DNA from: an uncultured virus (IMG/VR IMGVR_UViG_3300017990_000011)
Lineage: Duplodnaviria > Heunggongvirae > Uroviricota > Caudoviricetes
Length of the DNA: 64,000 nucleotides
Strand: one strand, 5' to 3'
Virus record (IMG/VR): IMGVR_UViG_3300017990_000011
Part shown: piece after piece, positions 11,685 to 40,318 of the stretch
Layout of the letters: each line of letters opens with the position of its first letter
Numbering within the stretch: the stretch's first letter is position 1
Program-made: the position numbers and the translations under genes
Notes under the pieces: generated by a model
Told to the model about the DNA's origin: nothing
Database searches by the model: none
What the model saw: only the letters and a program-made list of their open reading frames with translations

Positions 11685-11933
11685 ATGGCATATGTGTATA
11701 AGATAGGTTTTATATCGAGGCCGAGAGACGACCAGACACAGACACATGAGTCGACAACAGTTGCTGGTGTAGATGATAATCACGCTGAGTCAATACTGGA
11801 TCAGATGATTGAGCGACACATGGAAAAGTCTGATGTCCCATGTATCTACAAACGATTCGTAGAACGTAAGTCTAAGATCCTTGGGTACAGGTCATCAACA
11901 CCGAAGACAGGTAGATGTAAATCCATCTGGTAA
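11685..11933 (+). CDS. hypothetical protein with C-terminal GRCKSIW tag
   Basis: Ends PKTGRCKSIW-stop; SD AGGAG. Confidence 0.75.
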   Translation: MAYVYKIGFISRPRDDQTQTHESTTVAGVDDNHAESILDQMIERHMEKSDVPCIYKRFVERKSKILGYRSSTPKTGRCKSIW

Positions 11934-13005
11934 TTCTACGAAGGGTAGGAGGCGTGCATGAAACACGAGATGAAACAGATAGCCAAGCCCGTTGGCATAG
12001 TAAAGCGAGATGACGGGTCCATTGATCTAAAGGTACGCTCTACTATCTTTGATGAGACTGACCCTATAGCCAGGCGATACCCTACTGAGTGGGATCTGTC
12101 TAAAGAGATGCTTGACATCACAGATAAAGAACATATCAAGGCCCGACTTGGTTTGACTGACGAAACCTATCAGTACTGGATGGACCAGCTTAAATAGAGG
12201 TATACCATGAAAAAGAGAATTCATTGTCCATGGTGTTCAAGGAAGGTGCGTGTTAAGAAGGGGCGGCTTTCATCCCATGTGGACTACGGTGGGAAGAAAT
12301 GTATTGGCGTGGGACAGCCTGCCAGACGCATCAAGGAAATGATTAAAGTCAATGAAGAAAGGAGGAAACATGACGGACGGAATGTTGAGGGGCGAGGCGC
12401 TAAAAGAATACGAGGCGTTCGAGCATTTGTTCAGACTATACCAGCAGGACGCAATCGCAAACTTCCTGCTTAAATATCCAATGCTTAAGAAGTACAAGCA
12501 CAACCTCAGTTGTAGTAATGCTTTGATTGAATCTTCGCATGGTGTGGCATTGGAGCTGAAGTTTGATGGTGATGTAACTATGATACATGCCATAGCCATG
12601 GCTAAGACAGGCGACATGACTGAATGGAACCACAAACTGGGTGAGATGAAACAAGTACAAACACCAGGTCCGTTGGTCATTACAGTCAGACTACAGCTCG
12701 AACGTTTTTACTTCACGCCGTTAAGTGGCGAAATACTCACAATGTAGGAGGGATTATGATTATTAGCGACGGCTCTCATGTAGTTGAGATGCCAAAAGAC
12801 AGCAAGATGGTTAGCATCAAGGTACACTACGAATGCTTCGCAGAAATATGTGTGTTCGCCGATGATGTTGACACGGTTAAGGAATTCGCCAGAGGCAGAG
12901 AAGTTCGCATGCCTCTTCCTTTCAAAGGTCAAGACGGCAGCCAGAATCTGATACTCAAATCTGTTATGGTTGGTGGTGAAGAACTTGTGAAAGGAGGTGG
13001 ATGAT

Positions 13006-13815
13006 ATGAATAGGAAACCTGTTGATTGGTTTAACAGACGAATAGCTGAGGAATTCACTCGCATGTTTGCCAATGCTGCACACCGACAAGAGCGAGCGTT
13101 GAAGAATGAAGGTGCTGGTGAAAGAGGTAGCAAGAATGGATCCTTTCCCTTTATTCCTATGGGTACACAATCCGTAGCCAAAGATTTCGTGCTGACTGCT
13201 GACTTAATCCGCCAGAAGTCACGTAAATACTGTGAACAACCAACTCACTGGATGTACAACAAAACATCATACCAACTGACGTTCCTTGATGCTGGTTGTG
13301 GCATAGGCAACATAATGCTGATAGCCAACATGTTCGGTCTCGGTGGTGAACAGCATGGTATAGAGTATGACAAGAAGACCATCGATGCAGCACACAAGTT
13401 CCTGCGCACATACAGTGACCGCAACAATTTTGTCATACACCACGGTGATATACTCACCTTCCCGAACTACAAGGACTATGACATAATCTATTACTACTGT
13501 CCCTTCAGTAGCTACCTTCTACAGGCTTTCTTTGAGGAACGGCTTGAAGATGAGGTGAAGGTTGGTACCATCATCATGCCATATCTTAAACGGAGCGATG
13601 TGGTAAGGAAGGACAGTCGATTCAAACGACTAACAACGAGGAGGAATTATCCCAAAGTTTTACTCAAGGTCAGAGATGGCGAGAGAAAGCATAGTGTCCT
13701 ACCTGCGATGATGAAGGACCCAGACAGGTGGACTAACCTCAAGATGCCGAAGCATTATAAGAAGATGGTAACCCAGCGTCTCAAGGATATGGAGGAACGT
13801 GGATGTTTTTCATAA
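13006..13815 (+). CDS. class I SAM-dependent methyltransferase
   Basis: Motif I FLDAGCGIGN; GIEYD; GDIL; DIIYYYCPF. Confidence 0.85.
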   Translation: MNRKPVDWFNRRIAEEFTRMFANAAHRQERALKNEGAGERGSKNGSFPFIPMGTQSVAKDFVLTADLIRQKSRKYCEQPTHWMYNKTSYQLTFLDAGCGIGNIMLIANMFGLGGEQHGIEYDKKTIDAAHKFLRTYSDRNNFVIHHGDILTFPNYKDYDIIYYYCPFSSYLLQAFFEERLEDEVKVGTIIMPYLKRSDVVRKDSRFKRLTTRRNYPKVLLKVRDGERKHSVLPAMMKDPDRWTNLKMPKHYKKMVTQRLKDMEERGCFS

Positions 13816-14329
13816 CGAGAGTGTGCTGTCACTGCGACAAAGAGATGGGCACCATACCAACAGAGGTGAAACCTAAACCAGGTCTGGATAAATCACATGG
13901 TATATGTGATGACTGCATGCAGACCTATTATCCTAATGTCAATAGGCAGTCGGATGATACACCAAAGATTATTAAGGAAGGGGGTGTTTGTAATGAGTGA
14001 CGAAGCCAGTCACATCTACGTGTTCAAAGTAGATGAGCGGCATTTTACTACAACTGGTATCGCTATATTTGCAGCGGATACAAAAGAAGAAGCACGATCC
14101 ATGTTCTACGGCCTGAAGTGGAAGGACGTCAGGAATGCTAGCGTATCCACCGATACCGATAATGATCCGTTCGTGGATCAGAAGTACATCAAAATTCTGT
14201 TTCATCCACCATCCACCATCAACAGGTTCATGACTACTGTTTGGTGCCTGGAGTATGAATTCTTCCTTCGCGTGCCAGTTGCGAAGGGACTCAAAACTAT
14301 AGCTTATAGCAGTTAATAGGAGGTAGTTT

Positions 14330-14770
14330 ATGGCAAAGGAACTAACGCCGGAGGAATTCTCCGAAAAGTATGATGAACTGTATCAGCAAGCATTAGCGGT
14401 GTTTGCGGAGTATAATCCATGCAAGATAGAGGATTGCAGCGATGGTGAGCATAAGACATGCGCACGTGGTAGATTACATGATCGCGAATCCTTCTGCTGT
14501 TATGGGTGTGAGCACCTGTCAGATGATGGTTGCACCGTGGAATGTCTGTGGTGTAAGCTGTGGTTCTGTCAGGGGCCGCCCAACTCACAGTATGATAAGT
14601 ACCGTGGGAAACTTCTTAATGTACCCTATGAATTCTTTACCAAACTGGGAGCACTGAGGGTAGAAGCAGAGGGCTTGGGTATGATTGCTTATAGGTGTTC
14701 CAAGGAACGATTAATGGAGGAACGTTATGGAACTATGGACAGCGCAGTTCGGGTACTCAGGGCCGGATAG
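14330..14770 (+). CDS. Cys-rich metal-binding hypothetical protein
   Basis: FCCYGCEHL...GCTVECLWCKLWFC. Confidence 0.6.
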   Translation: MAKELTPEEFSEKYDELYQQALAVFAEYNPCKIEDCSDGEHKTCARGRLHDRESFCCYGCEHLSDDGCTVECLWCKLWFCQGPPNSQYDKYRGKLLNVPYEFFTKLGALRVEAEGLGMIAYRCSKERLMEERYGTMDSAVRVLRAG

Positions 14771-15119
14771 GCTTGATGTCACATACAAGACGCATGAAGC
14801 CATCAGAGTGGCCGGTGGCGGTGAACTGAAGCTGAACTTTGAAGCCAGATGGGTAGCACCTACCAAAGAGATGGTACATGGCTACAAGTATGGTTGGCCT
14901 GAGCTTGATCAAGAGGGCAAGGAAATCAGATACGTGTACATGTATCACAAGATCATGGAAAAAGCTTGGGAAGACCATCTCATGGACATGTATAATGTTG
15001 TCCAGAACTGGCCAGAGATGACCATTGTCTGCTACTGCAAATCGGGCGAATTCTGTCATCGATTGCTGCTTGTTGAGTATATGAGGCAACTAGGCGCCAT
15101 TTATATGGGCGAAAGGTAG
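14727..15119 (+). CDS. DUF488-like protein
   Basis: WVAPTKEM...IVCYCKSGEFCHRLLLVEYM resembles the DUF488 C-x(n)-CHR signature. Confidence 0.6.
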   Translation: MELWTAQFGYSGPDRLDVTYKTHEAIRVAGGGELKLNFEARWVAPTKEMVHGYKYGWPELDQEGKEIRYVYMYHKIMEKAWEDHLMDMYNVVQNWPEMTIVCYCKSGEFCHRLLLVEYMRQLGAIYMGER

Positions 15120-16677
15120 GATTATGGATCGATTGACAAAGAGGGCGCTAGCTGTGTTAGAGAACGTAGCGCAAATGCAGGCTAATGCAACACCAGCCAG
15201 TGCAGCTAGATTGGCAGCACTAATACCAGCATTCAAAGAGCTGCCATGGGATAATATCCACACTGTTAGAGTAAAGTGGGATATGATAGCAGATGACCTC
15301 GTGCCAACACTGGAAGTGGTGATGAAAGGGGACTTACCCTAACGGATGGGGTCCAAATGAGCGCTGGGGCGCGCGTGTAGGCGTCTAACCGACTGTTTCT
15401 GCTGAGCATACTGCTGATATTGGTATCGTGGTCGGTATGTTCAGTAGGAGCAGAACTAAAATGAGGAAAAGGAGAAGAGTGTATGAATATTATAGACAAG
15501 GCACAGGTACTGTTCAACCTCTGTATGGATAAGTTCGCAGATTGGTTGTTCAAACCGAAACCTTTTAAACCTGTTCCAGCCAGGAACAATTGGAATGGTG
15601 TACCTAAACCAGGTCTTACATGGGATGAAGTGCGCAAAGGCGCTGAGGCTATAGCACCTATCATACCGATGACCTGGGAAGTGGAACCAAGCGAATGTCC
15701 AGTGTGTAATGGCCCACTTGAGAAGTATAAGTCTGACTGGTGGGAGATTGAAGACAGCGGTCAGTATGCGGTGATAGGGTTGTACTGTAAAGAAGGGCAT
15801 TGGACACACTTAGACTGGATGTAATAGGGAGGTGCTATGGGTAAACGAACAAGGGCTCTTGAAAAACTAATGGAAGCCCACAACAATGCTATGAAGCGTG
15901 CACTTAGGTGGGCCCGCAATCATGGAGCAGAGGTAGATAAGTATGATATAGAACGTGTTGGTAGGAATACTCACGTAAAATTCTGCATCTACCATGCGAA
16001 TGATACGATTGAGGTGGGGTCCTTATTTGCTGATAAAGAAGATAACATGTGGTCTATGTATTCGGAAGAGGACTTTACCTTCAAGGTGCATAATGAGAAT
16101 GTTTCAATGTTTCTCAAGCACGTAAGCAATCATCGATCGATAGGTAAAGGACGCATCGATCCTAAGATCGAAATAGATACAGACGTCGGCAATCAGTATG
16201 TCATGCATAAGAGGCTGGAAATAGGCGGCTTCAATGACTATTCGTATACAAACATCAGACTAACGTTCCACATATACCATATAAAGGAGGTATTCTAAGT
16301 ATGCCAGACAAAGAAAGTAAATGGTTGGTGGTGTGGTATGACTGCTGTGAAGACCCTGATATGGACGATGAAGGTTCATATGCAGTGCGTATCAATGGCG
16401 ATATAATAAATAAACTCTATCTGGATTTTAAGTATGTTAACTTCCCATACAAAGGTAAGGTTGATGAGTGGAAGAGGCAATACTGGGCAGGTGTAGGGTT
16501 ACCACTGGATACATCAACTTCCAAGCTACAAGATTTTTACGGCGATGAAAAGACTATTGCCGAGCTGCCGGACATTACTGAGTATGTTATTAATACTGAA
16601 ATAAGTGATGTTGAACGTAAACTACGTAATAATGTAGCAAGATTGAAAGAACTCAAGGATTCGAAGGAGGTGCTCTA

Positions 16678-17172
16678 ATGTTTCTGATTAATGATTACAC
16701 ACCTATGACCATACCGGAACAACTGGAATTCAGGCCTGTAATCGAAGATGGTAAACACGTCACTAATTTGGACGGCGAAAAGAAGTTTCAATTATTCATC
16801 AACGGTGAGCCAGTCAAATGTATATGCCAGCACATGGACTCATGCACATGGCCGCCTGATGATTACATCCTACCGGAAAGTAGGGTACAAGACATTAAAG
16901 ATGGTTTCGCCAGCCTTACCGAGGAATTTCCATTTAAGATTAGGAACTTCTCATATAACGGTTTCTTTGGGCGAACAGAAGAAGGATACGCACCATATCG
17001 AGCGCAATTCCTTCGGTGGTCAGGCGACCCAGGTGTTGCAGTAATGTCTTGTTCAGATGGGGAGGATAGGTTTATACCTACCTACGCATTGGAAGGCCCA
17101 CACTTGGCTATACCACCAGATAACACAGCATTTGAGGACAAGCTGATGTTTGGTTATGCGTCAACGTCATAA
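16678..17172 (+). CDS. hypothetical protein
   Basis: SD GGAGGT; start overlaps the upstream stop. Confidence 0.6.
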   Translation: MFLINDYTPMTIPEQLEFRPVIEDGKHVTNLDGEKKFQLFINGEPVKCICQHMDSCTWPPDDYILPESRVQDIKDGFASLTEEFPFKIRNFSYNGFFGRTEEGYAPYRAQFLRWSGDPGVAVMSCSDGEDRFIPTYALEGPHLAIPPDNTAFEDKLMFGYASTS

Positions 17173-17181
17173 GGAGGAACT

Positions 17182-17643
17182 ATGCACAAAGATACACAAA
17201 TTAAACTTAGAATGCTAATGACTGGCATACTATGGTTCCTCATTGGTATTGGAGTCACTATCTGTTTCGTATTGTTTGCTGACAAGGTTTGGGCTACTGG
17301 GCCATTAGTATCCGACGATCACAACACACTTACAGTAAAGGCAAAGAATGGATATTATTGGATGGTCTCGGTGGATGGTTCTGAGCCGATGCGAATCGAT
17401 GCTATCAGGGATACAGAAAAGAACGAAGGTAAATTAGAACTCGATATACGTGGGATACTATCCTCTCCTGGTCAGCATACAGTAAAGATAGATGTATACA
17501 ACTACTATGGTACACCAGCGAGGGTTACTCCTGTCGTGGTATTCGATGTATTTGAAGATGGAACATTCACGTACAGGAATAGCCCTCTATATTTGGACAT
17601 GAAACCCAGACGCATAACAGACCTGATAGAAAAGGAGGAGTGA
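17182..17643 (+). CDS. membrane-anchored beta-rich protein
   Basis: N-terminal TM helix followed by a beta-rich region (PGQHTVKIDVYN). Confidence 0.55.
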   Translation: MHKDTQIKLRMLMTGILWFLIGIGVTICFVLFADKVWATGPLVSDDHNTLTVKAKNGYYWMVSVDGSEPMRIDAIRDTEKNEGKLELDIRGILSSPGQHTVKIDVYNYYGTPARVTPVVVFDVFEDGTFTYRNSPLYLDMKPRRITDLIEKEE

Positions 17644-18184
17644 TGTTTGAAGCCAAAGGAGAAAGGATTGAGGTGATAGTAATCAAGGACTTTCCTAAGC
17701 CACATGGCAGAGAGTTCATTTCTATCTATGAGAGTGAGAGTGGACACACCACACTCAAGACATCCAGCAAGGAGTTGACCGACCATTTGGTTGTGACACT
17801 AAGAGGCTCCAATGTAAACATGTTCGCTGAACAGATAGACTCTATAGTAGTGCCAACCAAGTACTATCATAGTAGAATAAAGCCACCCATTATGGCTAGG
17901 TATAACTGCTACTCCTCTTCTGAAATACCGAGCCCAGTTGTCAGTAGTGCGCCGATTAAAATTGTGCCAGAATACTCCAAGAATTCGATACAAATGCCTG
18001 ATGATGGACTGAAGGTGACATTCAACTACTCACCGTCTAAAATTATACCGAGGCGTAGAGCAACACTGACCATTGGATATGGGGACGATACTATCACCAT
18101 TCCAGCCACAAAGACAGACCTCAAACATTTCATAGTTGGACTTAAGGATTGTATACGTCTCATTCTTAATATCGAGAGGTAAGT

Positions 18185-18511
18185 ATGGTTATCAGCTCTA
18201 ACAAGAAAATTCTCTACTTTTCATTAACTACACAGGACTTCGAAACATTCGATAAGTATGATCTATTCATGGATAACATCATGGATGCTACCTACTCCAA
18301 AGCCTTGTTCATGCTCACCAAGTATACTAAGCACAGGGATAAGATGATAGAAGTAATGAGGGGAGTAGATAAATCCAGAGATGTGCGTGCTTTGTCAATA
18401 AAGGTAACTGGTATGAATGGTACGTTGGCTATAACCAATAATGCTTACAATGCATATAACAGTGAGAAAGAAACTTACAGCTCTAAAGGAAGGTGCAAAA
18501 GCATCTGGTAA
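18185..18511 (+). CDS. hypothetical protein with C-terminal GRCKSIW tag
   Basis: Ends SSKGRCKSIW-stop. Confidence 0.75.
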   Translation: MVISSNKKILYFSLTTQDFETFDKYDLFMDNIMDATYSKALFMLTKYTKHRDKMIEVMRGVDKSRDVRALSIKVTGMNGTLAITNNAYNAYNSEKETYSSKGRCKSIW

Positions 18512-18520
18512 GGAGGTACG

Positions 18521-19339
18521 ATGGCAGGGGAGAAGAAAAAGAAACTGATTGAGGTACAAGGGAATAGCAACTATAATCTAACGGGAGTTATTAATTTTTC
18601 TTATGTGTCCTCACCAGCTGATGGTAGACGACAGCTGAGTTCCTTTTATACATGTCGTGATTATTTGAGTGATGACTTATTATCACGCTACGGGGCCAAA
18701 GGCAGAACTGGTTCAGGTTCCATAGACACAACACGTTTGAGGTTATTAATAGGTGTAGGCCTAACAGACGACACCGCTGAAGAGTGGAAACAGTCTCTCT
18801 ATGATGCTAAGCGTATCATCAACATCTATGAAGAGGTAGCTGGCTTCAGTCGTACCTCTGTTCTTACTCGTGTGAACTACATGTATAACGGGAAGAAGTC
18901 AAGCAATGTCAAACATTGCTGGTTGTTGACTGGGCCTGAGGAATGGATGCGGTACTCTCAGTTAGTGTCTATGGTGACTTTGATACTCCGTACTGTCACC
19001 AGGTACAAACAAGCCAGTGAAGTGGAAACTATCGAGCAGGTCGAAGAATACTGGCAGAGATTGATCAAAGAATCCAATGCTAATGGTGCTAAGCCTGGCC
19101 TTAGACACGCAGATACATCAGACTATCTACCTCGTTGTTGGCAGAAATTCCACATGATGATGAGGTGGTTTGATAAGATCTTTACCTTGTCAGGTGAGAA
19201 AGCACATAAAGACGCAAGAAACTGGCATTCAAGGGGTGGTATCAATTCTCTTTGTACATTCAATACTGGTTTAAGACAGATAGACGAACCGATGCGGGAG
19301 GCATGGGAAGAATGGCGAAAGAAATACCCAAATACATAG
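18521..19339 (+). CDS. uncharacterised protein, paralogue of 59035 and 59839
   Basis: Shared FSYVSSP, CRDYL, WLLTGP..W...QLVSM.T.ILR and GGI.SL blocks. Confidence 0.75.
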   Translation: MAGEKKKKLIEVQGNSNYNLTGVINFSYVSSPADGRRQLSSFYTCRDYLSDDLLSRYGAKGRTGSGSIDTTRLRLLIGVGLTDDTAEEWKQSLYDAKRIINIYEEVAGFSRTSVLTRVNYMYNGKKSSNVKHCWLLTGPEEWMRYSQLVSMVTLILRTVTRYKQASEVETIEQVEEYWQRLIKESNANGAKPGLRHADTSDYLPRCWQKFHMMMRWFDKIFTLSGEKAHKDARNWHSRGGINSLCTFNTGLRQIDEPMREAWEEWRKKYPNT

Positions 19340-19590
19340 ATGAAATCACAATACACATGACATTTGAAGACGCAAACGCATGGGCTGCTCTAGATAGAAT
19401 GGACTTCGATACCACATTCATGGCTTTTAAGGGATGGTTCGGAGATAATGAGGAAGCGCAATCTAAACTTAAGAATGCTGGTAAGATGATACTCATCAAC
19501 GACGCCAATGGTGATGCATCGGTTAAGGTCCACCCAAACTATGTCATCTATGGTGAGTCCAAGACTGGTAGATGTAAGTCCATCTGGTAA
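19312..19590 (+). CDS. hypothetical protein with C-terminal GRCKSIW tag
   Basis: Ends SKTGRCKSIW-stop; start uncertain (19303 or 19312). Confidence 0.7.
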   Translation: MAKEIPKYIDEITIHMTFEDANAWAALDRMDFDTTFMAFKGWFGDNEEAQSKLKNAGKMILINDANGDASVKVHPNYVIYGESKTGRCKSIW

Positions 19591-20052
19591 GGAGGAACAT
19601 GCGACGTATAAGACGCAATGATAAACGTAAGAAATGCAAGCGATGTGGTTCCTCGATAAAACGGAGACTATGGGTATGGCCCATCGGTTGTATAAACTCT
19701 GAATGTAATAATTATTATAGGAGGAAAACTACATGACGCACTTTGTGCGTCGTATCGATTTCAGGAGGAAATCAATATGTTATTCAAGGATTTTCAACAG
19801 GATGATGCGCCGGATAGAACCTATAGATGTGAAAGCTGTGAACGTACATTCCATGCAGTGGACATAGTATTAGTCAACCCACCGAAATCTTTTGTGACGC
19901 CTCCAAATGGCTTTCGCTTTGTCAACAAATATGGACGGGTTCGTGGTGGGACTAAGCCACCCAACGCTGGTATTGATGATAAAGTATACGGTTGTCCTTT
20001 CTGTTTACACCCACACATGGGCGCGATGTCAGCCATATAGCAGGAGTATAGT

Positions 20053-20325
20053 ATGCCTTTCGCCAATACACTTACATTTGATAATGCCAAGGTAGGCATG
20101 CGTGTTATGTTGGTGTCTGATCAAGGGGGAGACTATGATATCGGCGAGTCCAATCCCCTTATCGACACTGAATATGAATGCGAAGGTGTGATTGAAGAAA
20201 TAGAACCTGGTGTTGAGATATGTGTTGAATGGGATAACGGATCCCACAATATTTATTTATCAGGGGACTTAGTTTCTCTTAATGATATGGACAGACCAGA
20301 TGGTAAGTGCGTATCCATTTGGTAA
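20053..20325 (+). CDS. Mib/HERC2-like (SH3-like) small protein with C-terminal GKCVSIW tag
   Basis: KVGMRV...EGVI...VEWDNGSHNIY; paralogue of 46488. Confidence 0.6.
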   Translation: MPFANTLTFDNAKVGMRVMLVSDQGGDYDIGESNPLIDTEYECEGVIEEIEPGVEICVEWDNGSHNIYLSGDLVSLNDMDRPDGKCVSIW

Positions 20326-20345
20326 GGAGTCAAAAGGAGATCAAT

Positions 20346-20957
20346 ATGGTAAAATATAGTAGAGGTGCGACTGCGAACATAGATGACGTAGTCAAAAGGA
20401 TGAACATCCAACAGACAAGAGGCGGACAATACTTAGGTGCTATAGAGAATGCTAAGACCGGCACCGTACATGCTATCATAAATCCACAACTTGCTACGTA
20501 TTACGGTAATGGTACTGGTATCGAGTTACAGTGTTGTAGTGTGATAGCCAACTTGAAAGAGTACGGCACGACCACAGGTCTTCATACACGACCCAAATAT
20601 CGAGTATGCAGTAGCCCATTTGCTGTCAACTGTAAGTCCTGTCTCAAACGTAAAATATCACTGAACAACGGGCAAACAACTACCATCAAGAGAGAACTAT
20701 ATGTACTTCAGCGGGGTTTGGTGTACGAAACACCAGCAGACCCTATCAACGATGTGGTTCTTGTAATGCATGGAGAGGTTGAGTGTCGTGCATCAGGTGT
20801 CGAAGGTGTATTAGAGTACCTCAACGAATTTGGACACCATCCTACTGAAATAATAGAGAACTTTAAAGATGGTACGTTCGGGATCTTTTCACTGACCGAA
20901 CTGCAAGTGAGGGTCAAGACTGAAACTAAGATCATAGGACTGGAGGTGAAAGAATGA
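20346..20957 (+). CDS. hypothetical protein with H...C...CxxC zinc-finger-like domain
   Basis: TVHAI...QCCS...VNCKSCL; SD AAGGAG. Confidence 0.6.
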   Translation: MVKYSRGATANIDDVVKRMNIQQTRGGQYLGAIENAKTGTVHAIINPQLATYYGNGTGIELQCCSVIANLKEYGTTTGLHTRPKYRVCSSPFAVNCKSCLKRKISLNNGQTTTIKRELYVLQRGLVYETPADPINDVVLVMHGEVECRASGVEGVLEYLNEFGHHPTEIIENFKDGTFGIFSLTELQVRVKTETKIIGLEVKE

Positions 20958-21140
20958 AGACATTGGCAGATATATTGAGAACATTAGGTGCACAACAAGT
21001 AGACCCAGACATACCTACTGGCGCTTATCCACAAATCAATCCATTCACTGGCAACCCTATGGCCGGCGGTTTCTATCTTGACGGCGGTGTTTGCCCTGTG
21101 TATGAGGAGTATGAACAAATAAATAAAGGAGGTGACAATC

Positions 21141-21581
21141 ATGACGGCTCCGATCACGGAGTTTAAAGACGACTATAGATTTCTTTCTAACTTTTATCCA
21201 TCACCATTTGTCTATAACGGCGTACACTTCGCTACCAATGAACACTTCTATCAAGCATACAAGGCAGTAAGAAGAGACCAGTTCCTGCAAGTAGCTAGCG
21301 CGCCCACGCCAGGGGCAGCTAAGAAACTAGGTAGGACAGTCCAGATGATGGACCAATGGGATATGTATAAAGAGCAAATTATGTTCGTAGGACTGCAACA
21401 CAAATACTACAACAACCCTCAATTGAGGCAGATGCTCATTGATACAAATCCACGCATGTTAATAGAAGGTAATTGGTGGGGTGATAAGTACTGGGGTATA
21501 TGCCTCAAGACAAACGAGGGTGATAATAGGCTAGGTCACTTGCAGATGATGCTACGTGATCAGCTAATGCGAGGTGAATAA
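21141..21581 (+). CDS. NADAR family protein (YbiA-like)
   Basis: FLSNFYPSP; TNEHFYQAYKA; AKKLGR; LIEGNWWGDKYWG; GDNRLGHLQM. Confidence 0.92.
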   Translation: MTAPITEFKDDYRFLSNFYPSPFVYNGVHFATNEHFYQAYKAVRRDQFLQVASAPTPGAAKKLGRTVQMMDQWDMYKEQIMFVGLQHKYYNNPQLRQMLIDTNPRMLIEGNWWGDKYWGICLKTNEGDNRLGHLQMMLRDQLMRGE

Positions 21582-21936
21582 TGCAACGCAGAAAACCCGA
21601 GTCGATGTCAGCAGAGTTCTTCTGTCGAGACATCATAAGAATATTCAAGCAGACCATAAGGTCAGAGATGTCAGCCAGCCATGTTACATATGGTACTGGT
21701 ATACTAATGCAAGTAGATAAGAACCTTGAAGTGCCTAAGAGATTCATCATTACCACCGACGGACCGACTACTTTCGGGGCGGTAAAGATGATACTCGAGG
21801 ATTTGGGGTTGAGGAGAGAGGTGCCATCATGTAGGCACTATCTACTTGGTACCATCATTAGCGTCAAAATTGAACGGGCTAATGAGAAAGAAATATACAG
21901 CAATTACAAACGTCCAGGTAAATGGGATACAATAAA

Positions 21937-22407
21937 ATGATGGAACTGAATCATAACGAGTCAATAATGTTAAAACCAGGCAAGACGGTGGTATCTGTAG
22001 CTTTGGTTAAACAATACAACTCAGGTACCCCCGTCTTTGTTAGGTGTTACAGAAAGTCTAACACCTGGACACTGCCATCTACTGAAGTGGACTACACTGA
22101 TGAAGAAAGTCCAACTCGTACAGTATTATCTGTAGTGCATATGCTAGAGAAAGTATTGGATGATGATGCTTCTAGCTTCTCAATCAAGTCCATTGAACCA
22201 ATATGCGATATCATTGATAAAGATATACCATCCAGAGTGATGATGTATCTGGCCAAATTAGATAAGGGTATTGACGCATACCAATTATACACATCATCGG
22301 ACTGTGATAATTATCGTATCTCTCGCTTTATGCATCAGAACCAGTTGTTTAGAGTATTCAAAGCCATTACCCTCGAGCTGTATGTTAAGTATCTGAGGAG
22401 TTTATAA
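21937..22407 (+). CDS. degenerate Nudix-fold-like protein
   Basis: WTLPSTEVD...EESP resembles the W-x-L-P-G-G...E-S-P lead-in, but the REUXEEXGU helix is absent. Confidence 0.4.
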   Translation: MMELNHNESIMLKPGKTVVSVALVKQYNSGTPVFVRCYRKSNTWTLPSTEVDYTDEESPTRTVLSVVHMLEKVLDDDASSFSIKSIEPICDIIDKDIPSRVMMYLAKLDKGIDAYQLYTSSDCDNYRISRFMHQNQLFRVFKAITLELYVKYLRSL

Positions 22408-22859
22408 TGATAATCGTATTATTTATATTCATGATCTACGTATTCGGGATGATATTGAATTACTCAATGACGTTTGCATATCTCCAGAGAACTGTAGATG
22501 TAGCAAAGACCGGCTCTGCTAAGTTATCGAAGGATGTGTCATTCGCCTTTGTGTTGTCCTTTACAAGTTGGATTGGTGCGTTGTTCATATTCAATCATAT
22601 AATAAATAACTTACCAGGTACTAAATTCTCCGGCCTTCGTATTAACCCAGCTGAAACCAGTGAGTATTGGCAGGATCATAAGATGGAGACGCGGGCGATG
22701 GAAACAGCACGAGAAAGATTTAGAAACGCTGCTCATAAGCGAGACCACTATTTTACTACTAATGGTGGTAATATAACATTCCGTAATGGTCCACACTTTA
22801 AAGAAGAACCAATAGCAGTATCCAATAAAACGGGAGGTAGGTGCAAAAGTATATGGTAA
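22407..22859 (+). CDS. membrane protein with C-terminal GRCKSIW tag
   Basis: Two hydrophobic helices; ends KTGGRCKSIW-stop. Confidence 0.75.
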   Translation: MIIVLFIFMIYVFGMILNYSMTFAYLQRTVDVAKTGSAKLSKDVSFAFVLSFTSWIGALFIFNHIINNLPGTKFSGLRINPAETSEYWQDHKMETRAMETARERFRNAAHKRDHYFTTNGGNITFRNGPHFKEEPIAVSNKTGGRCKSIW

Positions 22860-22933
22860 TACTTTCGCGGGCGAAGACTGCAAAAGTATATGGTAATACT
22901 TTCGCCGGCGAAGACTGCAAAAGTATATGGTAA
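22860..22933 (+). repeat. two tandem 37-nt units, each ending in codons for CKSIW-stop
   Basis: TACTTTCGC(G/C)GGCGAAGACTGCAAAAGTATATGGTAA twice. Confidence 0.9.
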
Positions 22934-23240
22934 CCATGAGGGGGTGTAGTATGCCGAGTATGATTGAGTATTTGAATTCATATGGTGACAGGTATCAAAT
23001 ACCTAAAAGATCTGTAGCCTTTTTCCGCAGTAGAAAGAAAGAGCCGGTTAAGAATGAGGTCATGGAATTGACCAAGAGAATAAAGAAGAGGCGCGGCCAG
23101 ACTGCATCTATAACTCAACATAACGCGTCATTAGAGCTGGGGGTAAAGATGGAAGTAATAAGGCGGGTATTCACTGACCTTATAAAGGAAGGTGTGTTGA
23201 AACAAACAGACCGAGATGAATTTAGTATAGAATAGGAGGC

Positions 23241-23825
23241 ATGATGAGGCCGGTAATACAAGAACTTAATGCTTTTATAGTAGCAGAGCCGATAATGGCA
23301 CTTCTTTTTGGCTTAATAGCTATGTGTTTCATTATACTTATACTAAAGATGATGAAAGCATTCTTACCACCTAGCTTTTATGAATTCAAACGTATAGGTA
23401 AGTTCGTAGGCAAAGTACTTGAAGCATTTGGTGGCTTCATGATGTTTCTGGTGAGCATACCATTCAAGATACGTAAATCTATTAAAAAGGCAAAGTATGA
23501 GCGTAGGCTTAAGAGAGAGGCACAGATAGAAGAGGCCGCACGCAAGATGGTGGATGCCTTACCTAAGGTGAAGACTGTTATCAGAGAGATGGATGAATAC
23601 ACCTACTGCTATAACTGCGATATACACTATAATAAAAAATTACCTGAATGCCCGAATTGTTTTGCTCAAGATCTGGCAAAGGCGGATGTCAAGGCCATAT
23701 TCAGCATACTCAAAGGTGTTCGTGAGTTCAGATACCTATCATTTGATAGGGAACAGGATCTAATCAAGTTTATCAGTGAAAGAATGATAGGTGATAAGAT
23801 CGATGATTTAGGTAAGAAGGATTGA
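23241..23825 (+). CDS. membrane protein with zinc ribbon
   Basis: TM helix; CYNC...CPNC. Confidence 0.6.
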   Translation: MMRPVIQELNAFIVAEPIMALLFGLIAMCFIILILKMMKAFLPPSFYEFKRIGKFVGKVLEAFGGFMMFLVSIPFKIRKSIKKAKYERRLKREAQIEEAARKMVDALPKVKTVIREMDEYTYCYNCDIHYNKKLPECPNCFAQDLAKADVKAIFSILKGVREFRYLSFDREQDLIKFISERMIGDKIDDLGKKD

Positions 23826-23827
23826 TT

Positions 23828-24892
23828 ATGGGTAGATTAATGAGAAAGAAAAAGAAGAAGACCAAAGGTAAGAAGTTCGTAAAGGACGAACTTGTATCCA
23901 TTGTACCGGACACAGACAAACGGTATAATATGGGTGGCCCGGCCAGTAAATCTTTTTGGGAAGAGCCAGAGAAGAAAGTTGAAGAACCTGGCACTGGTGA
24001 GGTTATTCATACACATATGAGCAACCCATGCGCAGAGGTGAATATTAATGAGACCAGGCCAGTCGGTGAGAAGTTAGAACTCCATACATTTGGTGAGCCC
24101 ACTACTTATATTGATACCGAGGGTATAAAACATGGTGTGTTTGGCGCTGACCCTGATACTGCTGAAATTGATGGAGGATCCAACATACACATCGGTGAAG
24201 TAGATGATAACAAATGGATTACCTATGATAACGAAGACATGACCCTGAAGTGGACTGGGAAATGGGATGACGAGCCTGAGGAAATCAAAGAAAAGACTGT
24301 TGACCAGATGACCGAAAGAATATCTAAGGATTTAGCATTCGCTACTAAATATGGTATGAAGGGTACTACCAAAGATGAGATGGTAGCTAAGTTCAGTGAC
24401 ATCATCAATGAAACTTTGGAAAGTATAACAAACGAGCCTGATGATGTTGCTTTCGATGAGGAATTGGAAGATGCATTAGAAGAAGCAGCCAATGAAACTA
24501 CTATGGTGCCTGAGCCTAAACCACATAACTATTTTAGGTCTGGCCAACACATCCATATGGCAATAGACGACATGCCCGAAGAAGTGGATCCGGTAGATGA
24601 GGACAGAGAATTCTATCTTACTCATCAATTCAGTGTAAGTCCAAATGATCATGGTGAACCATCTAATGCATCGATAAATTTCTTAGCTGAGATAGCTGAT
24701 TATCTTGGGTACAACGCTACTGAATTACTGGCTGAAGCTCACGACATGAGTGTAGAAGAGGCGTATGACACTGAATTTAAACAAGCGTCGATAATCATGG
24801 GCATAGACTACGGAAGATATGTAGTTCGCAACGGCGGCGGCCCTGCTAAGGTATCAGACACAGCAAGGGGCAGATGCAAATCCATCTGGTGA
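23828..24892 (+). CDS. acidic hypothetical protein with basic N-terminus and C-terminal GRCKSIW tag
   Basis: Ends TARGRCKSIW-stop. Confidence 0.75.
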   Translation: MGRLMRKKKKKTKGKKFVKDELVSIVPDTDKRYNMGGPASKSFWEEPEKKVEEPGTGEVIHTHMSNPCAEVNINETRPVGEKLELHTFGEPTTYIDTEGIKHGVFGADPDTAEIDGGSNIHIGEVDDNKWITYDNEDMTLKWTGKWDDEPEEIKEKTVDQMTERISKDLAFATKYGMKGTTKDEMVAKFSDIINETLESITNEPDDVAFDEELEDALEEAANETTMVPEPKPHNYFRSGQHIHMAIDDMPEEVDPVDEDREFYLTHQFSVSPNDHGEPSNASINFLAEIADYLGYNATELLAEAHDMSVEEAYDTEFKQASIIMGIDYGRYVVRNGGGPAKVSDTARGRCKSIW

Positions 24893-24929
24893 TGGATTCG
24901 CGGTCGAAGACTGCAAAAGCATCTGGTAA
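24893..24929 (+). repeat. third 37-nt CKSIW cassette
   Basis: TGGATTCGCGGTCGAAGACTGCAAAAGCATCTGGTAA; 31/37 identical to the 22860 unit. Confidence 0.85.
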
Positions 24930-25184
24930 GGAGTTAACATGAAATGCAAGAGATGTGGTGCACTGATGATACCAGTGCTTACAGATAAGAAAGTCCAATG
25001 TACTGAATTCAGATGCTCTGACGACGGCTGCTACTGGGCTTCGGTCGAACCATGTGTTTTATGTGGTAAGCCATCAGGTTATCTCAAGGGAGATAATGTG
25101 GAAGGCAGAGCGAATTATACAGCGGCTGGGCAATTGTGCCCTACCTGCGCACAAACGCTCCAATAAGACAGGAGGTAAAAGGCA

Positions 25185-25712
25185 ATGAACAAAGGAGTTA
25201 TGGCCATTATTGGCATCGTCGTACTGGTGGTAGGAGTAGGTCTGTTCGGCTACAACGTTAGTGTGGACAACCGTGCAGTCATGCTCGGCAACAAGTTCGA
25301 CAAACAACTCGGCCTGGTAGAAGGATTCCACGATACCATGTGGAAGACCATCAAACAACAGGCCAACGTCACCGACAAGGCCAAGGACGCTTTCAAAGAG
25401 ATTTATACACCACTTATCGAAGGTCGATACTCACAGGGCGATGGGACGCTGATGAAGTGGGTCAAGGAACACAATCCTGAATTCGGCACCGAGATGTATC
25501 AGAAACTTATGGTGTCCATCGAATCTCTAAGAAAGCAGTTCTTCCATGTACAATCACAGGTCTTGGCCACCATCCAGGAGCATGACAACCTGCGGGAGCG
25601 ATTCCCGTCCAAGGTGTTCTGCAACGCGGAGCCTCTCGAGTACGAAGTTATATCTTCGACCCGCTCGAAACAGGTGATGAAGGACGGCAAGGACGATGAC
25701 GTCAGCTTGTAG
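25185..25712 (+). CDS. LemA-like membrane-anchored helical protein
   Basis: N-terminal TM, long helices, C-terminal HDNLRERFPSKVF (LemA-like YN...FP). Confidence 0.55.
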   Translation: MNKGVMAIIGIVVLVVGVGLFGYNVSVDNRAVMLGNKFDKQLGLVEGFHDTMWKTIKQQANVTDKAKDAFKEIYTPLIEGRYSQGDGTLMKWVKEHNPEFGTEMYQKLMVSIESLRKQFFHVQSQVLATIQEHDNLRERFPSKVFCNAEPLEYEVISSTRSKQVMKDGKDDDVSL

Positions 25713-25737
25713 ACTCGGAGTCTATAAAGCTGGTCAA

Positions 25738-25795
25738 GGGAGGCTACAGGGGTTTTAAACCACCTTTTTTACCCTGTACCTCCCTCAACTTTTTA
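25738..25795 (+). terminator. hairpin, putative terminator
   Basis: GGGAGG(C)TACAGGG...CCCTGTACCTCCC followed by CAACTTTTT. Confidence 0.55.
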
Positions 25796-25809
25796 AAGGA
25801 GGATATGTC

Positions 25810-27120: not shown

Positions 27121-27536
27121 TGCTGTTAGGTGTACTTATTATAATGGCAATAGTCGCTGTATCACTGTGCATGGGGATCGGAGTAACTATATCCTTCCCC
27201 GTCGCAGTGGTACATGTAGTACCACCTGCTATGCTACTCTTTGCTTTCGGTTATATCAAAGACATGCTCACTAAGTCCAAAGATATATACGAAAGATTTT
27301 TCAACCTATGGATGGTAATCTTTTGTGGTTGGATGTCGATTAGTGGTAGTGTAGCATTAGGTAAGTACTACAATGAAGGTATAATACCAACAGCATCATG
27401 GACTGAATTGCCTGAAATACTCACATGGGCAGCAATTGGTATTGGTGTTGGTCTAGCCTTACACTTTATTGTTAAACGATTACGTATGTACCCAAGGAGG
27501 AATTACAGTGGCCCTAAATATCATAACTATAGATGA
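27120..27536 (+). CDS. hypothetical membrane protein
   Basis: Four hydrophobic segments. Confidence 0.6.
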   Translation: MLLGVLIIMAIVAVSLCMGIGVTISFPVAVVHVVPPAMLLFAFGYIKDMLTKSKDIYERFFNLWMVIFCGWMSISGSVALGKYYNEGIIPTASWTELPEILTWAAIGIGVGLALHFIVKRLRMYPRRNYSGPKYHNYR

Positions 27537-27963
27537 GGATCCAGGCAAATTATTAAGCCAACCATGCAAAACCGTGCCGCTAGATAAGATAAAAGATTAC
27601 TCTGATCTGGCACACGACATGCTTGACATGGCCAAAAGCATAGGTGCTCTGGGTCTGGCAGCCAACCAGGTTGGTGTGAACCGACGTCTGTTTGTATTGA
27701 CTAATGGTTCTATTATTGTGTTTAACCCTGAGATTATAGCCAAGTCCAACTTCATCACCTCTCGTGAAGAGGGTTGCCTCAGCGTGCCGGACAAGCGGTT
27801 CGATATACGTAGAGCCAAGACCATAGTGATCAGAGGCTATGATGTAGAGGGTAATGAATTCACCCTCAAGCCGAAGAAGAAGATGGACGCCATCGCTATT
27901 CAGCATGAGATAGACCATCTTAATGGTTTTACTCTTAATGACTTGGGAAAACAGGTGAGCTAA
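27508..27963 (+). CDS. def: peptide deformylase
   Basis: All three motifs present: GLAANQVG, EGCLS, QHEIDHLNG; GTG start after SD AAGGAGG. Confidence 0.95.
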   Translation: MALNIITIDEDPGKLLSQPCKTVPLDKIKDYSDLAHDMLDMAKSIGALGLAANQVGVNRRLFVLTNGSIIVFNPEIIAKSNFITSREEGCLSVPDKRFDIRRAKTIVIRGYDVEGNEFTLKPKKKMDAIAIQHEIDHLNGFTLNDLGKQVS

Positions 27964-28308
27964 TGGCTAATGCAGAACATGAGATAGTAAAGAGTTTCCT
28001 CATAAATGCAGGGATAACCGTGGCATTCTCTATCGTCTTATTAGTTATGGTCAAACAGTGGATAAAGGATATGTTCCGCCGCTATAACAGCCATGAAATA
28101 CATGATATCGGAAATATGTTTCATGAATTCAGGTGGAGCCTGGATTTCAAGATGACTATAATGATAAGCTATATTGTGATTGCATTATTAACCGGCCTCA
28201 TTGTATCCACAGGTTATAGCGCTGTTAGCACTTGGATACAAGGTGAAAATTTAATCACATGTATGAACGATGTCGAATCATTAAACTACCAAGCGAGGTT
28301 ACAAGGCT

Positions 28309-29643
28309 ATGCAATTCCAACGACTGGTGAGGAATGTGTTCAAGAAGACAGCGAGGCCGGAGGAGACGATAGCAAGGATTAAAGAAGGCTTCAAACGACT
28401 GGGACTTGATGAGGAGTTCACTATTGCACACCACTTTCCTAACGCGTACTCTACTCATATGCGTATATCAGACTTAGGTGTGTTCTCTAACGGCAAAGGT
28501 TTGAGTGAAGAGTTATCCGTAGCCTCAGCATATGGAGAGATGGTTGAACGTCTGTCTGCTGGTCTTCAAAACTTTGAACAACAACCATTCAAACAGTACT
28601 ACGGCTTGGATTCTATTATAAAGAGTCGCTTCGACACTTACCAGTACTTGCCTGGTTATGTGTGTGAACACGAGGATGCCATACCCAATGCTATACGAGT
28701 AGAGGACTTACTAGGGCACCTCAAACACTTGAAGAAGGCCGACCTTGAATTCATTAGGGATGAGTCTGAACTAACTCGACACTGGGTGGATGGCTATTCA
28801 CTATTGAATGATCGACAAGTCAAAGTACCACTCATGCTAGTGCGTTGGATTAGTGCCACTAATGGCTTAGCAAGCGGAAATACTATGGAGGAAGCCATAC
28901 TACACGGCTCGTATGAGTGTATTGAACGCTATGCTACCATCAAAGCAGTCAGAGATAAGATGATATTTCCCACCATAATATATGACACTATTAATGTTGA
29001 CTACTTAAAAGAGTTGATGAATACACTATATCAAAGTGGTGTTGAGTTTCATATAAAAGAGATGTCAATGGACTTGAGCATGTATATAACTGGTGTGGTG
29101 TTCATCAATCACAACGTACCAGAGGACTGCTTAGAACACATGTCCATCAAAGTGGGGTGTGCGAGTGATACTGAAGAGGCACTGGCTCGTTGCTTCACTG
29201 AGAGACTGCAAGGAGCCAACCCAGTACAAGAAGGTATGGCTCCTACATATATAACACCTGAGATGAAAGAAGATTATCTACCTATATTCTTCAAGGGCTA
29301 TAGTCCCAAACCATTGGAGATGATGAAACTCGGTACACAGATTAATTTTGAACGTGGAGATTCTCTCAACACTGGTACTGAACTGACCTTATTGAAGTCA
29401 ACATGTGAATCATTAGACACTGATTTAATAGTGGTTGATCAAACGCATCCTGTACTACAATTCCCTACAGTTAGAGTAATCATGCCGGGTATATCCGATT
29501 CAATGAGGTACTGGTCTGAGAAAAGCCTAACAAAAGAAATGATATCTAATACGTCCAAAGAAGATAACCGTAGGGATACTATGGTCATAAAACTAATGCG
29601 TTCGTTCTCGGAGGAGGCTTCAAATCCTGCCTCTGCAGGATAG
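28309..29643 (+). CDS. ycaO: YcaO-family protein
   Basis: PEETIARIK; SNGKG...ASAYGEMVER; TNGLASGNTMEEAILHG.YECIER; PTVRVIMPG.S. Confidence 0.88.
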   Translation: MQFQRLVRNVFKKTARPEETIARIKEGFKRLGLDEEFTIAHHFPNAYSTHMRISDLGVFSNGKGLSEELSVASAYGEMVERLSAGLQNFEQQPFKQYYGLDSIIKSRFDTYQYLPGYVCEHEDAIPNAIRVEDLLGHLKHLKKADLEFIRDESELTRHWVDGYSLLNDRQVKVPLMLVRWISATNGLASGNTMEEAILHGSYECIERYATIKAVRDKMIFPTIIYDTINVDYLKELMNTLYQSGVEFHIKEMSMDLSMYITGVVFINHNVPEDCLEHMSIKVGCASDTEEALARCFTERLQGANPVQEGMAPTYITPEMKEDYLPIFFKGYSPKPLEMMKLGTQINFERGDSLNTGTELTLLKSTCESLDTDLIVVDQTHPVLQFPTVRVIMPGISDSMRYWSEKSLTKEMISNTSKEDNRRDTMVIKLMRSFSEEASNPASAG

Positions 29644-29661
29644 TACCGAAGGGAGGTCGGT

Positions 29662-30075
29662 TTGGGTGAAATAATAAGTCCAAGGCCCATATTTAAAAAG
29701 GATGAGATACCCAAGAACAAGAGGGTTGAAAGACTGTTACTTGGGAGCCAAACGTCAGGCGTTGTCTTCGATGTAACCCGTAAGGGACTTACGGTTAATG
29801 GTTATTATCCAGGCGGCAACAACGGCACATTGTATGGTATACTCAGTAAACCTATTGAGATACCATGGGATGAGCTGGATAAGATGCGTAAGGCTGTCTT
29901 CCGTCCTAAGGGCAAGAAGAAGAAACAGATTGAGTTTGACATTGATGACAATCCAGATCAGAAATATCTTGACAAACTACCTAAAGTGACTATATTAGGT
30001 AGAAAGTATTATATAGATGCCGAACGGAAAGAAAGACGTCCGGTCGATTATCCAAATAGAGTGTATAAGTTTTAA
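29662..30075 (+). CDS. hypothetical protein
   Basis: SD GGAGG before a TTG start. Confidence 0.6.
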   Translation: MGEIISPRPIFKKDEIPKNKRVERLLLGSQTSGVVFDVTRKGLTVNGYYPGGNNGTLYGILSKPIEIPWDELDKMRKAVFRPKGKKKKQIEFDIDDNPDQKYLDKLPKVTILGRKYYIDAERKERRPVDYPNRVYKF

Positions 30076-30085
30076 AGGAGTTAAT

Positions 30086-31072
30086 ATGGCTACCGTATCA
30101 TTTGAACCAGGACCACCAAGAACATCAAAACACAAACACTTGATGTGCCCAGCATGTGGTTTTCATCATGTGTATTTAAAACACCGGCCCAATCGTTGTG
30201 AAGGCTGCGGAGAGAAACTAGACGGACGGGATGAACCAATTGCTAAAAAGATAGAAACGGTATGGTCTTGTTCTAATTGCGGTCGTATAAACAGCCGCAT
30301 GCTGGATGAGGGGGCCAACCACTATCTAACATGTGAGTGCGGTCATAAAACAACAATCAAAGTAGATAAGAATGCGGAGAAACAGACAATCGGGCCTAAT
30401 CGTAAATACTACACCAAACCTATTAAACAAAACATGAAGAGTCCAAAACCAACCCCTTCTCATAGATTCACATGTATGAATTGTGGTCGTAATGAAAGAT
30501 ATAAGCATGATGTACGTGAATTGTCAGCGGTCTGTCGAAACTGTGGTAGTAATGACATGAGAGATGAACATGGTATTTTATTATTAGATCGGCAAAATCA
30601 CCAACGATTAGAGATCAAGTCCGGCAAGGTGAAATTCAAGAAAGAGGCGGCCTCGGCGCCATCACCAAAGCGTAAGTATGCCAGGCCCATTGATAGAAAA
30701 ACATTCCAGTGTAGGGGTTGTGGCCATATAGTAAGATATAAAAAGACCGTTCATGAACTAAGCGATCACTGTCGTCAATGTGGTAGTGGTGATGTAATGG
30801 ATGGGCAAGGTACAACAGTGTATAGACGCAAACAAGCGTCACCTAAGAAGAAAATAACCGCTAATAGGATACTCACATGTTCGAATTGCAATCACAAAGA
30901 GTCATACAATGTGATACGGGATGACAGACCAACAAATTGTCCAGACTGTGGTGCTGAGTATCCTGATCCATATCAGTATAAGAAGAAATGGAGCGGTGGG
31001 CCAGGTTTGTATAAGCCAGAAAAGAACAAAGTGACTATCACCAAGGCTGGTAAATGTAAATCAATTTGGTGA
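30086..31072 (+). CDS. multi-zinc-ribbon protein with C-terminal GKCKSIW tag
   Basis: Five CxxC...CxxC-type ribbons with basic linkers; ends KAGKCKSIW-stop. Confidence 0.8.
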   Translation: MATVSFEPGPPRTSKHKHLMCPACGFHHVYLKHRPNRCEGCGEKLDGRDEPIAKKIETVWSCSNCGRINSRMLDEGANHYLTCECGHKTTIKVDKNAEKQTIGPNRKYYTKPIKQNMKSPKPTPSHRFTCMNCGRNERYKHDVRELSAVCRNCGSNDMRDEHGILLLDRQNHQRLEIKSGKVKFKKEAASAPSPKRKYARPIDRKTFQCRGCGHIVRYKKTVHELSDHCRQCGSGDVMDGQGTTVYRRKQASPKKKITANRILTCSNCNHKESYNVIRDDRPTNCPDCGAEYPDPYQYKKKWSGGPGLYKPEKNKVTITKAGKCKSIW

Positions 31073-35244: not shown

Positions 35245-35330
35245 GGCCCAGTGGTGGAATTATGGTAGACACAGCAGGCTTAAGACTTGCTGCTCGTAAG
35301 AGCGTGAAGGTTCAAGTCCTTCCTGGGCTA
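35245..35330 (+). tRNA. tRNA-Leu(TAA)
   Basis: Acceptor GGCCCAG/CTGGGCT; anticodon arm GCAGG-CTTAAGA-CTTGC; long variable arm; T arm GAAGG-TTCAAGT-CCTTC; no encoded CCA. Confidence 0.9.
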
Positions 35331-38742: not shown

Positions 38743-38749
38743 TGTTGTA

Positions 38750-40313: not shown

Positions 40314-40318
40314 GGTTT

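Follow-up and report, generated by a model that had tools for sequence, protein, structure and literature searches.

A portable C-terminal peptide on unrelated proteins of uncultured phages, probably a docking motif

We describe a C-terminal peptide that recurs on dissimilar proteins encoded in a 64,000-nucleotide (nt) stretch of DNA (the window, here always meaning that whole stretch) from an uncultured virus of the Caudoviricetes, IMG/VR record IMGVR_UViG_3300017990_000011. This tail, or tag, is seven residues long and sharply defined, with a Trp that is invariant in the window copies, and its wider form can be written as G-[RKN]-[C/Y/F/V]-x-[S/D]-[I/L]-W. We propose that it is a portable short linear motif which probably, if by no means certainly, docks unrelated phage proteins onto one putative common partner. 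It had originally been predicted, from the letters and their translations, to be a peptide address label of unrecognized type, and our analysis supports that proposal in kind: a shared C-terminal docking motif is a known kind of element, and this particular sequence appears to be undescribed. A keyword-level literature search turned up no published description of the motif, as the original prediction had supposed, and none of the phage SH3-like/HERC2 proteins that are among its carriers.

A six-frame search of the window with the pattern G.C.SIW returned eight matches in the 64 kb, every one of them on the + strand and in frame with a long open reading frame (ORF), with the coordinates and sequences that had been predicted for them. 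A stop codon directly follows the motif in seven of the eight (ORFs ending at 11933, 18511, 19590, 20325, 22859, 24892 and 31072). The remaining copy, GMCDSIW, is internal and stands nine residues before the end of ORF 46488-46778. Chance was gauged with 200 mononucleotide shuffles of the window, each of which held no match at all against the eight observed; the shorter pattern C.SIW was found 11 times, where the shuffles averaged 0.225 and never exceeded 2. The carriers are the following (aa, amino acids):

11685..11933, + strand: 82-aa carrier ending TGRCKSIW-stop (tag DNA 11910-11933), with no Pfam or PHROG family
18185..18511, + strand: 108-aa carrier ending KGRCKSIW-stop (tag DNA 18488-18511), its stop codon abutting the GGAGG of the next gene
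19252..19590, + strand: carrier of ~77-112 aa with an uncertain start codon, ending TGRCKSIW-stop (tag DNA 19567-19590)
20053..20325, + strand: 90-aa SH3-like carrier (MIB/HERC2-like, phrog_18715/11307) ending DGKCVSIW-stop, a member of the apparent home family of the tail
22407..22859, + strand: 150-aa carrier ending GGRCKSIW-stop, with hydrophobic N-terminal segments, by eye a membrane protein
23822..24892, + strand: 356-aa acidic carrier ending RGRCKSIW-stop, an ORFan
30017..31072, + strand: 351-aa multi-zinc-ribbon carrier ending AGKCKSIW-stop
46488..46778, + strand: 96-aa SH3-like paralogue of 20053-20325 with internal GMCDSIW (46728-46748), then DNHPLFDDF

When the tails were removed, 20053-20325 and 46488-46778 remained related (E 2.5e-16), and every other pair of carriers gave E > 0.1, so that the eight carriers fall into seven families, three of which are small proteins without any known family. 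The original description of the carriers as otherwise unrelated therefore holds for six of them and fails for the SH3-like pair. A profile of the SH3-like family covers merely the last 10-25 residues of the other six carriers, which leaves the tail alone as their common part. The 356-aa carrier is its own sole match among 5.8 billion protein clusters and has no relatives in IMG/VR either. A search for carriers that might be copied pieces of other proteins of the window found none.

The way in which the copies differ speaks to the level at which they are conserved. With the most frequent codon at each position as reference, a hand count gives 18 synonymous and 5 non-synonymous changes in the eight window copies, the latter being confined to motif position 2 (R/K/M) and position 4 (K/V/D). 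The other five residues (Gly, Cys, Ser, Ile, Trp) are invariant in these copies despite 15 synonymous changes in their codons: Ser is written TCC, AGC, AGT or TCA, Ile ATC, ATT or ATA, Cys TGT or TGC and the stop TAA or TGA, a synonymous variation that had already been described and is confirmed here. Ser moreover crosses between the TCN and AGY codon families, which single synonymous steps cannot connect. When copies from four other sources are added to those of the window (18 DNA copies altogether), five Ser codons are in use (TCC, AGC, AGT, TCA and TCT), and ATC, ATT and ATA occur six times each. Identity between copies is 57-95% within the 21-nt tag and 13-43%, the random level, in the 60 nt upstream. 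Because the changes are so largely synonymous, Ser switches codon family and five residues stay invariant, the comparison indicates selection on the peptide and not on the DNA, as had been predicted.

The tail appears to be the ancestral or native C-terminus of a large family of SH3-like proteins of ~80 aa in uncultured phages. A family profile built from four members, tail included, and scored against 1.84 billion representative proteins retrieved 521 proteins at E <= 1e-3, of which 141 also reached E <= 1e-10; most are 73-100 aa long. Among the best 150 members as ranked by this tail-containing profile, 111 show x-[ILMVF]-W no more than 12 residues from the C-terminus, in 80 cases exactly as SIW. 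Position -4 of the 111 tails is occupied by Cys (56), Tyr (23), Val (9), Phe (8) or else Ile, Met or Leu, and position -6 by Gly in 64. Trp is the last residue in 57 tails and is followed by 1-8 further residues in 54, of which 24 continue with Glu or Asp. The tail is kept within the family at 30-40% identity. For instance, a relative 67% identical to the protein 20053-20325 (P0002) ends GRCSSIW, and of the relatives in a phage with a GC content of 30-31% (L009, L029 and L066; contigs of 72 and 280 kb) those of L009 and L066 end GRCKSIW.

PHROG profiles of unassigned function (phrog_18715/phrog_11307/phrog_9469) match both window members (E 5.4e-7 for 20053-20325 and 3.8e-5 for 46488-46778), and the six other carriers have no such match. 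Pfam gathering cut-offs are not reached, either by MIB_HERC2 (PF06701; 13.6 bits for 46488-46778 vs 33.5) or by DUF4314 (PF14192; 15.5 and 12.5 bits for the pair vs 27). A tblastn search with the window SH3-like carrier found no match in 50,697 phage records; the same search with the family member P0011 matched only Proteus T4-like phages, whose homologue has another tail. An IMG/VR search with the family alignment A1 returned the L009 contig alone, and 185,579 species genomes held no relative of the family. Eleven family proteins (P0083, P0099, P0109, P0123, P0126, P0129, P0134, P0140, P0142, P0147 and P0151) carry an alternative, basic tail, [DN]PNxxF[RK]xKK[RK], of which there is none in the window.

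The SH3-like gene also has recurrent neighbors. Homologues of a 300-aa protein (42113-43015) and of a small protein of 79-112 aa (47000-47338) immediately precede the SH3-like gene in the L009/L066 phage, with E values of 1e-41 and 4e-10, respectively (8e-24 for the SH3-like protein itself). The syntenic loci in this GC 30% phage are L020 3551-4996 and L066 8579-10024, and in the window all three genes lie within 5 kb. No family and no PDB relative were found for the 300-aa protein, and its Atlas model is poor; its adjacency in the one other phage, which does not amount to evidence of binding, makes it no more than a lead as a possible functional partner of the SH3-like family. In L009 (3444-5036), a 530-aa protein beside the SH3-like gene resembles, by eye only, a TROVE/Ro60-type protein.

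At the DNA level, metagenome contigs yielded 66 loci for the tag, largely through chance matches in short frames, and two further bodies came from among them. One of these fills a contig (L037; 2,246 bp, GC 32%) with seven tandem copies of a ~100-aa protein, the first of them truncated at the contig end. Identity to a reference copy is 33-41% for the six complete copies, and all seven end [AGNT]-K-C-x-S-I-W-stop, which makes the contig a tandem expansion of tagged proteins. All nine clusters of this family in the protein collection end xSIW, with Tyr in place of Cys in P0162. The other body is a 126-aa protein (L053) with hydrophobic N-terminal segments, an apparent two-transmembrane membrane protein, which ends GRCKSIW. 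In a single comparison it gave a weak full-length alignment with the window protein 22407-22859 (26% identity, E 1e-5), to which it may be homologous. On this sequence evidence at least nine unrelated bodies, from several phages, appear to bear the tail, namely the seven families of the window, the helical L037 family and L053, the last perhaps homologous to one of the seven. The seven window families and the L037 family bear out the portability of the tag across unrelated proteins. The label had been taken to be specific to one phage, and this part of the original prediction has to be given up: the tag is the native tail of the large SH3-like family of uncultured phages, and P0002, L009/L066, L053 and the L037 family all carry it. 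By the same token, homologues in related phages keep it (GRCSSIW in P0002, GRCKSIW in L009/L066 and L053, nine of nine clusters of the L037 family), and since they do, the concern raised with the original prediction that homologues might lack the tag is answered.

Structure prediction places the tail outside the folded bodies. The AlphaFold2 model of 20053-20325, based on 41 family sequences, shows a confident SH3-like barrel over residues 1-78 (mean predicted local distance difference test score, pLDDT, 82.9), and tail residues 81-90 fall below 50. The model of the L037 family is helical and of moderate confidence (mean pLDDT 70.9), with tail residues 93-98 again below 50. The tail is thus modeled as a floppy appendage on two different folds and as part of neither. 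The possibility that the SH3-like domain reads its own tail was also considered; in the monomer model the tail remains undocked. A fold search with the barrel recovered, at weak E values (2.5e-4 to 5e-2), YorP (2heq), phage DUF4314 proteins and the CPH (HECTD1), Tudor and MIB-HERC2 domains, together with a weak match to the COOH-NH2 ligase of Pseudoalteromonas phage RIO-1 (E 6.7e-3). Internal variants of the motif read hydrophobic-x-D-[IL]-W-x-x-hydrophobic, the spacing of a short amphipathic helix, and by way of analogy only this spacing is reminiscent of docking motifs of the F-x-x-L-W type.

These features suggest a mechanism in which the flexible C-terminal peptide, held on a polar linker, would dock into a hydrophobic pocket of the partner, probably as a short amphipathic segment. 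The putative partner would be either host-derived or a conserved phage protein, and the carriers (binders, membrane anchors, zinc-ribbon proteins) would be interchangeable bodies on a common handle. A short 3' cassette, made up of the last codons and the stop and often of the Shine-Dalgarno sequence of the next gene as well, could carry the tail to new genes by recombination. The window tags use AGR for all five of their Arg codons, although CGN accounts for 50% of the Arg codons of the window, which is consistent with copying rather than convergence.

Traces that may belong to such a process lie between genes. The DNA pattern TGYNNNWSNATHTGG occurs at 12 places in the window, eleven on the + strand and one, an unrelated match at 53659, on the - strand. 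Three of the eleven + strand copies are intergenic (22879, 22916 and 24912), with the sequence GAC TGC AAA AGY ATM TGG TAA. Each belongs to a 37-nt unit that opens with a 19-nt spacer, containing a small GC inverted repeat, and closes with the tag end:

22860..22935, + strand: two extra 37-nt units, intergenic, with a spacer containing the TTCGCSGGCGAA inverted repeat, then GAC TGC AAA AGT ATA TGG TAA
24893..24929, + strand: one extra 37-nt unit with spacer TGGATTCGCGGTCGAAGAC, then TGC AAA AGC ATC TGG TAA, directly before the GGAG of gene 24939

Counting the genes' own tags, three units stand in a row behind 22407-22859 (22842-22935) and two behind 23822-24892 (24875-24929). The period of 37 nt equals 1 mod 3, which puts each copy in the +1 frame of the preceding one. 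Only one of the two units at 22860..22935 has an in-frame start codon, and the unit at 24893..24929 has none; because two of the three thus lack a start, these units are not independent genes. The region 22860..22935 folds better than its shuffles (z -2.8), and the unit at 24893..24929 together with the tag of the gene gives a strong RNA fold (z -3.98). Such units could be scars or by-products of duplication or recombination between tag-coding repeats.

Several observations weigh against the docking reading. On the protein side, the tagged share of the SH3-like family is inflated, since the 150 members inspected were ranked by a profile that included the tail. Even among them, ~39 are without it, nine of these having the basic PNxxF[RK]xKK[RK] end and 30 neither, and the homologue of Proteus phage Pm5461 has another C-terminus. 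The spread of the carriers other than the SH3-like proteins rests on few contigs: an IMG/VR search with the tag pattern containing Arg gave 15 loci with one real carrier, and with the pattern K-C-x-S(TCN)-I-W-TAA just one of the matches listed (at least 120) lay in an ORF of at least 50 aa, probably by chance. On the nucleotide side, tag DNA exists outside coding sequence too, in the intergenic copies. In addition, all five pairs of a 5-bp hairpin of the AGATG/CATCT type can form in six of the eight window copies, and the second base of the R/K/M codon and the third base of the Ile codon form a pair in seven of eight, a level reached by 1.2% (Watson-Crick pairs only) to 3.6% (with wobble) of permutations. 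There may accordingly be an added constraint at the RNA level in the phage of the window.

This last possibility leads to the explanation that the tag is primarily a nucleic-acid element, be it a hairpin, a processing site or a recombination cassette, whose fixed stop forces the same peptide on each gene. The six copies with complete stems, the intergenic copies, two of them without an in-frame start, and the folds of the duplicated units would fit it. The codons of the peptide, however, already impose three of the five stem pairs, the folds of single tags are no stronger than those of shuffles (z -0.9 and -1.9), and just one of ten copies from other phages has all five pairs. It follows that the hairpin is at most a local, secondary constraint; the caveat attached to the original prediction, that copies can form it, stands inside the window and lapses outside. 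The stem covariation expected of a structured RNA element is likewise not kept in related sequences, the changes are almost all synonymous with a switch of Ser codon family, the motif is in frame even where it is internal (46728), and the protein family keeps it at 30-40% identity. As a primary explanation the nucleic-acid element is thus largely refuted and, in our estimate, very unlikely. Still more improbable, close to negligible, is a peptide acting in cis, with SIW-stop tuning termination or coupling to the next gene while inside the ribosome. Seven of eight window tags do end at the stop, which abuts the next Shine-Dalgarno sequence at 18511, 19590, 20325 and the intergenic 24929, but the motif lies 1-8 residues from the stop in 54 of the 111 family tails and nine in 46488-46778.

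The tail could also be a degron by which early proteins are removed on one schedule, read by a ClpXP-, Lon- or FtsH-like protease from the host or the phage. This would be one form of docking, in which the protease acts on the carrier, and is not separable here from docking in general. In its favor, the C-terminal peptide is exposed and disordered in the models, and the small accessory proteins that bear it are encoded by short + strand genes in what looks like an early region; a cytosolic tail on membrane carriers is compatible with the idea. Residues behind the Trp, as in 54 of 111 family tails, would be unusual for degrons read at a free end, and we know of no C-terminal degron class that the tail resembles; we regard this explanation as rather unlikely. 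We rate somewhat lower, as unlikely, the proposal that the tail is a modification site, at which the YcaO protein or the COOH-NH2 ligase/peptidase C26/GGACT enzymes would modify Cys or Ser or extend the C-terminal carboxylate. The enzymes are encoded in the window, with the YcaO gene 374 nt upstream of the tagged zinc-ribbon gene 30017-31072; Glu or Asp comes next in 24 of the 54 tails that run past the Trp, and one of the weak hits of the SH3-like barrel in the fold search is a phage COOH-NH2 ligase. Against this, the Cys is found in just 56 of 111 family tails, where an azoline-forming YcaO would need an indispensable, conserved Cys, Ser or Thr in its substrate; it is replaced in the other 55, as it is by Tyr in P0162 of the L037 family, and the Trp is terminal in 57 and non-terminal in 54. 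This idea, part of the original prediction, is weakened accordingly, though it could still apply to the phage of the window, which encodes these enzymes. That no YcaO or COOH-NH2 ligase was found in the 72-kb L009 record is weak evidence in the same direction, the record being 30% complete and the ligase model silent in control genomes. A virion-packaging signal, with the tail binding the procapsid interior so that carriers are packed and injected, would account for a short address peptide on a flexible linker of small unrelated phage proteins. It is disfavored because two carriers (22407-22859 and L053) are apparent integral membrane proteins, which cannot be packed, and the carriers sit among early-type accessory genes rather than structural ones. 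We consider it highly improbable.

The docking reading finds several partial counterparts in known systems. The proteins gp43, gp33 and gp55 of phages T4/RB69 have C-terminal tails that bind the sliding clamp, and here as there a short C-terminal peptide is common to several unrelated proteins of one phage. The present tail, however, departs in sequence from the hydrophobic clamp motifs, and the window has no gene for a clamp. Rather than replication or transcription factors, the proteins that carry it are of the small accessory, membrane and zinc-ribbon kinds, and it occurs across many phage lineages. SspB-type adaptors have a C-terminal ClpX-binding (XB) peptide, and their layout of a folded body, flexible linker and conserved short C-terminal peptide is the one modeled here for two folds. 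The peptide sequence is different, however, nothing ties the tail to ClpX, and one peptide serves many bodies. The cargo-loading peptides of encapsulins and the capsid-targeting sequence of T4 are address peptides on the cargo of an HK97-type shell and of a phage head, respectively, and resemble the tag as short address peptides on unrelated proteins; the T4 sequence, by contrast, is N-terminal and cleaved off, the tag is C-terminal in all eight carriers, and the apparent membrane carriers speak against packaging. MIB/HERC2 domains are peptide-binding modules, and the home family of the tail has, in its model, the SH3-like fold of the MIB/HERC2, CPH, Tudor and DUF4314 (YorP, 2heq) families. 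None of these has been described with a G-x-C-x-S-I-W tail, and six of the window carriers are without the domain. For comparison, a class I PDZ ligand has the form S/T-x-hydrophobic-COOH; S-I-W or its family equivalent stands at a free C-terminus in seven of the eight window copies and 57 of the 111 family tails, with 1-8 residues behind it in the other 54.

As to the phage itself, the window has a GC content of 42.4%, and 112 of its 132 greedy ORFs are on the + strand, which places nearly all genes on one strand. Proteins encoded in the window were also met on a contig of 144,731 bp, indicating that the window is a piece of a large phage, and a near-DNA search of 50,697 phage records gave no match for 17000-25000. 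Nine transfer RNA (tRNA) genes lie at 35245-48925 (Leu, Tyr, Cys, Asn, His, Glu, Arg, Thr and Pro). Among them are small ORFs and the genes of two endonucleases, one of the PD-(D/E)XK type on the - strand (35328-36329) and one of the HNH type (43635-44153). Genes for the salvage of nicotinamide adenine dinucleotide (NAD) are found at 49462-54173, 21132-21581 and 31097-31546, comprising a nicotinamide mononucleotide transporter, AAA_28, an isochorismatase-type nicotinamidase and NAPRTase, in addition to NADAR and Macro domains; this set points to a strong NAD/ADP-ribose theme in the tagged phage. The row of a phiEco32-like COOH-NH2 ligase, a peptidase C26/GATase and GGACT (gamma-glutamyl cyclotransferase) at 60673-63956 looks like a peptide- or gamma-glutamyl-ligation module. 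At 27469-29643, a peptide deformylase is encoded near the stand-alone YcaO protein (444 aa, 28309-29643), for which no relatives were found in IMG/VR, and small hydrophobic ORFs lie between and beside them.

Short linear motifs that give unrelated viral proteins one partner are well known in eukaryotic viruses and barely charted in phages. The tail described here is present in hundreds of protein clusters of uncultured phages and absent from the cellular genomes searched, in which (the same 185,579 species genomes) the tag pattern gave 52 loci and none of the four ORFs of at least 40 aa among them was convincing. It can serve as a search key for annotating phage accessory proteins that otherwise escape annotation, and, being so sharply defined, it offers a direct experimental handle on the putative partner. 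At the level of the genome, a 3' cassette of ~24 nt could be enough to retarget a gene by recombination. More tentatively, and as a possibility to which we give limited credence, the tail may be the handle of a modular targeting system used by many large uncultured phages, in which the targets of the different bodies (SH3-like peptide binders, helical domains, membrane anchors and zinc-ribbon proteins) would be delivered to, or blocked at, a single conserved hub such as a host AAA+ protease or some other central machine. If true, this would be the bacterial-virus counterpart of the hijacking of hosts through short linear motifs by eukaryotic viruses.

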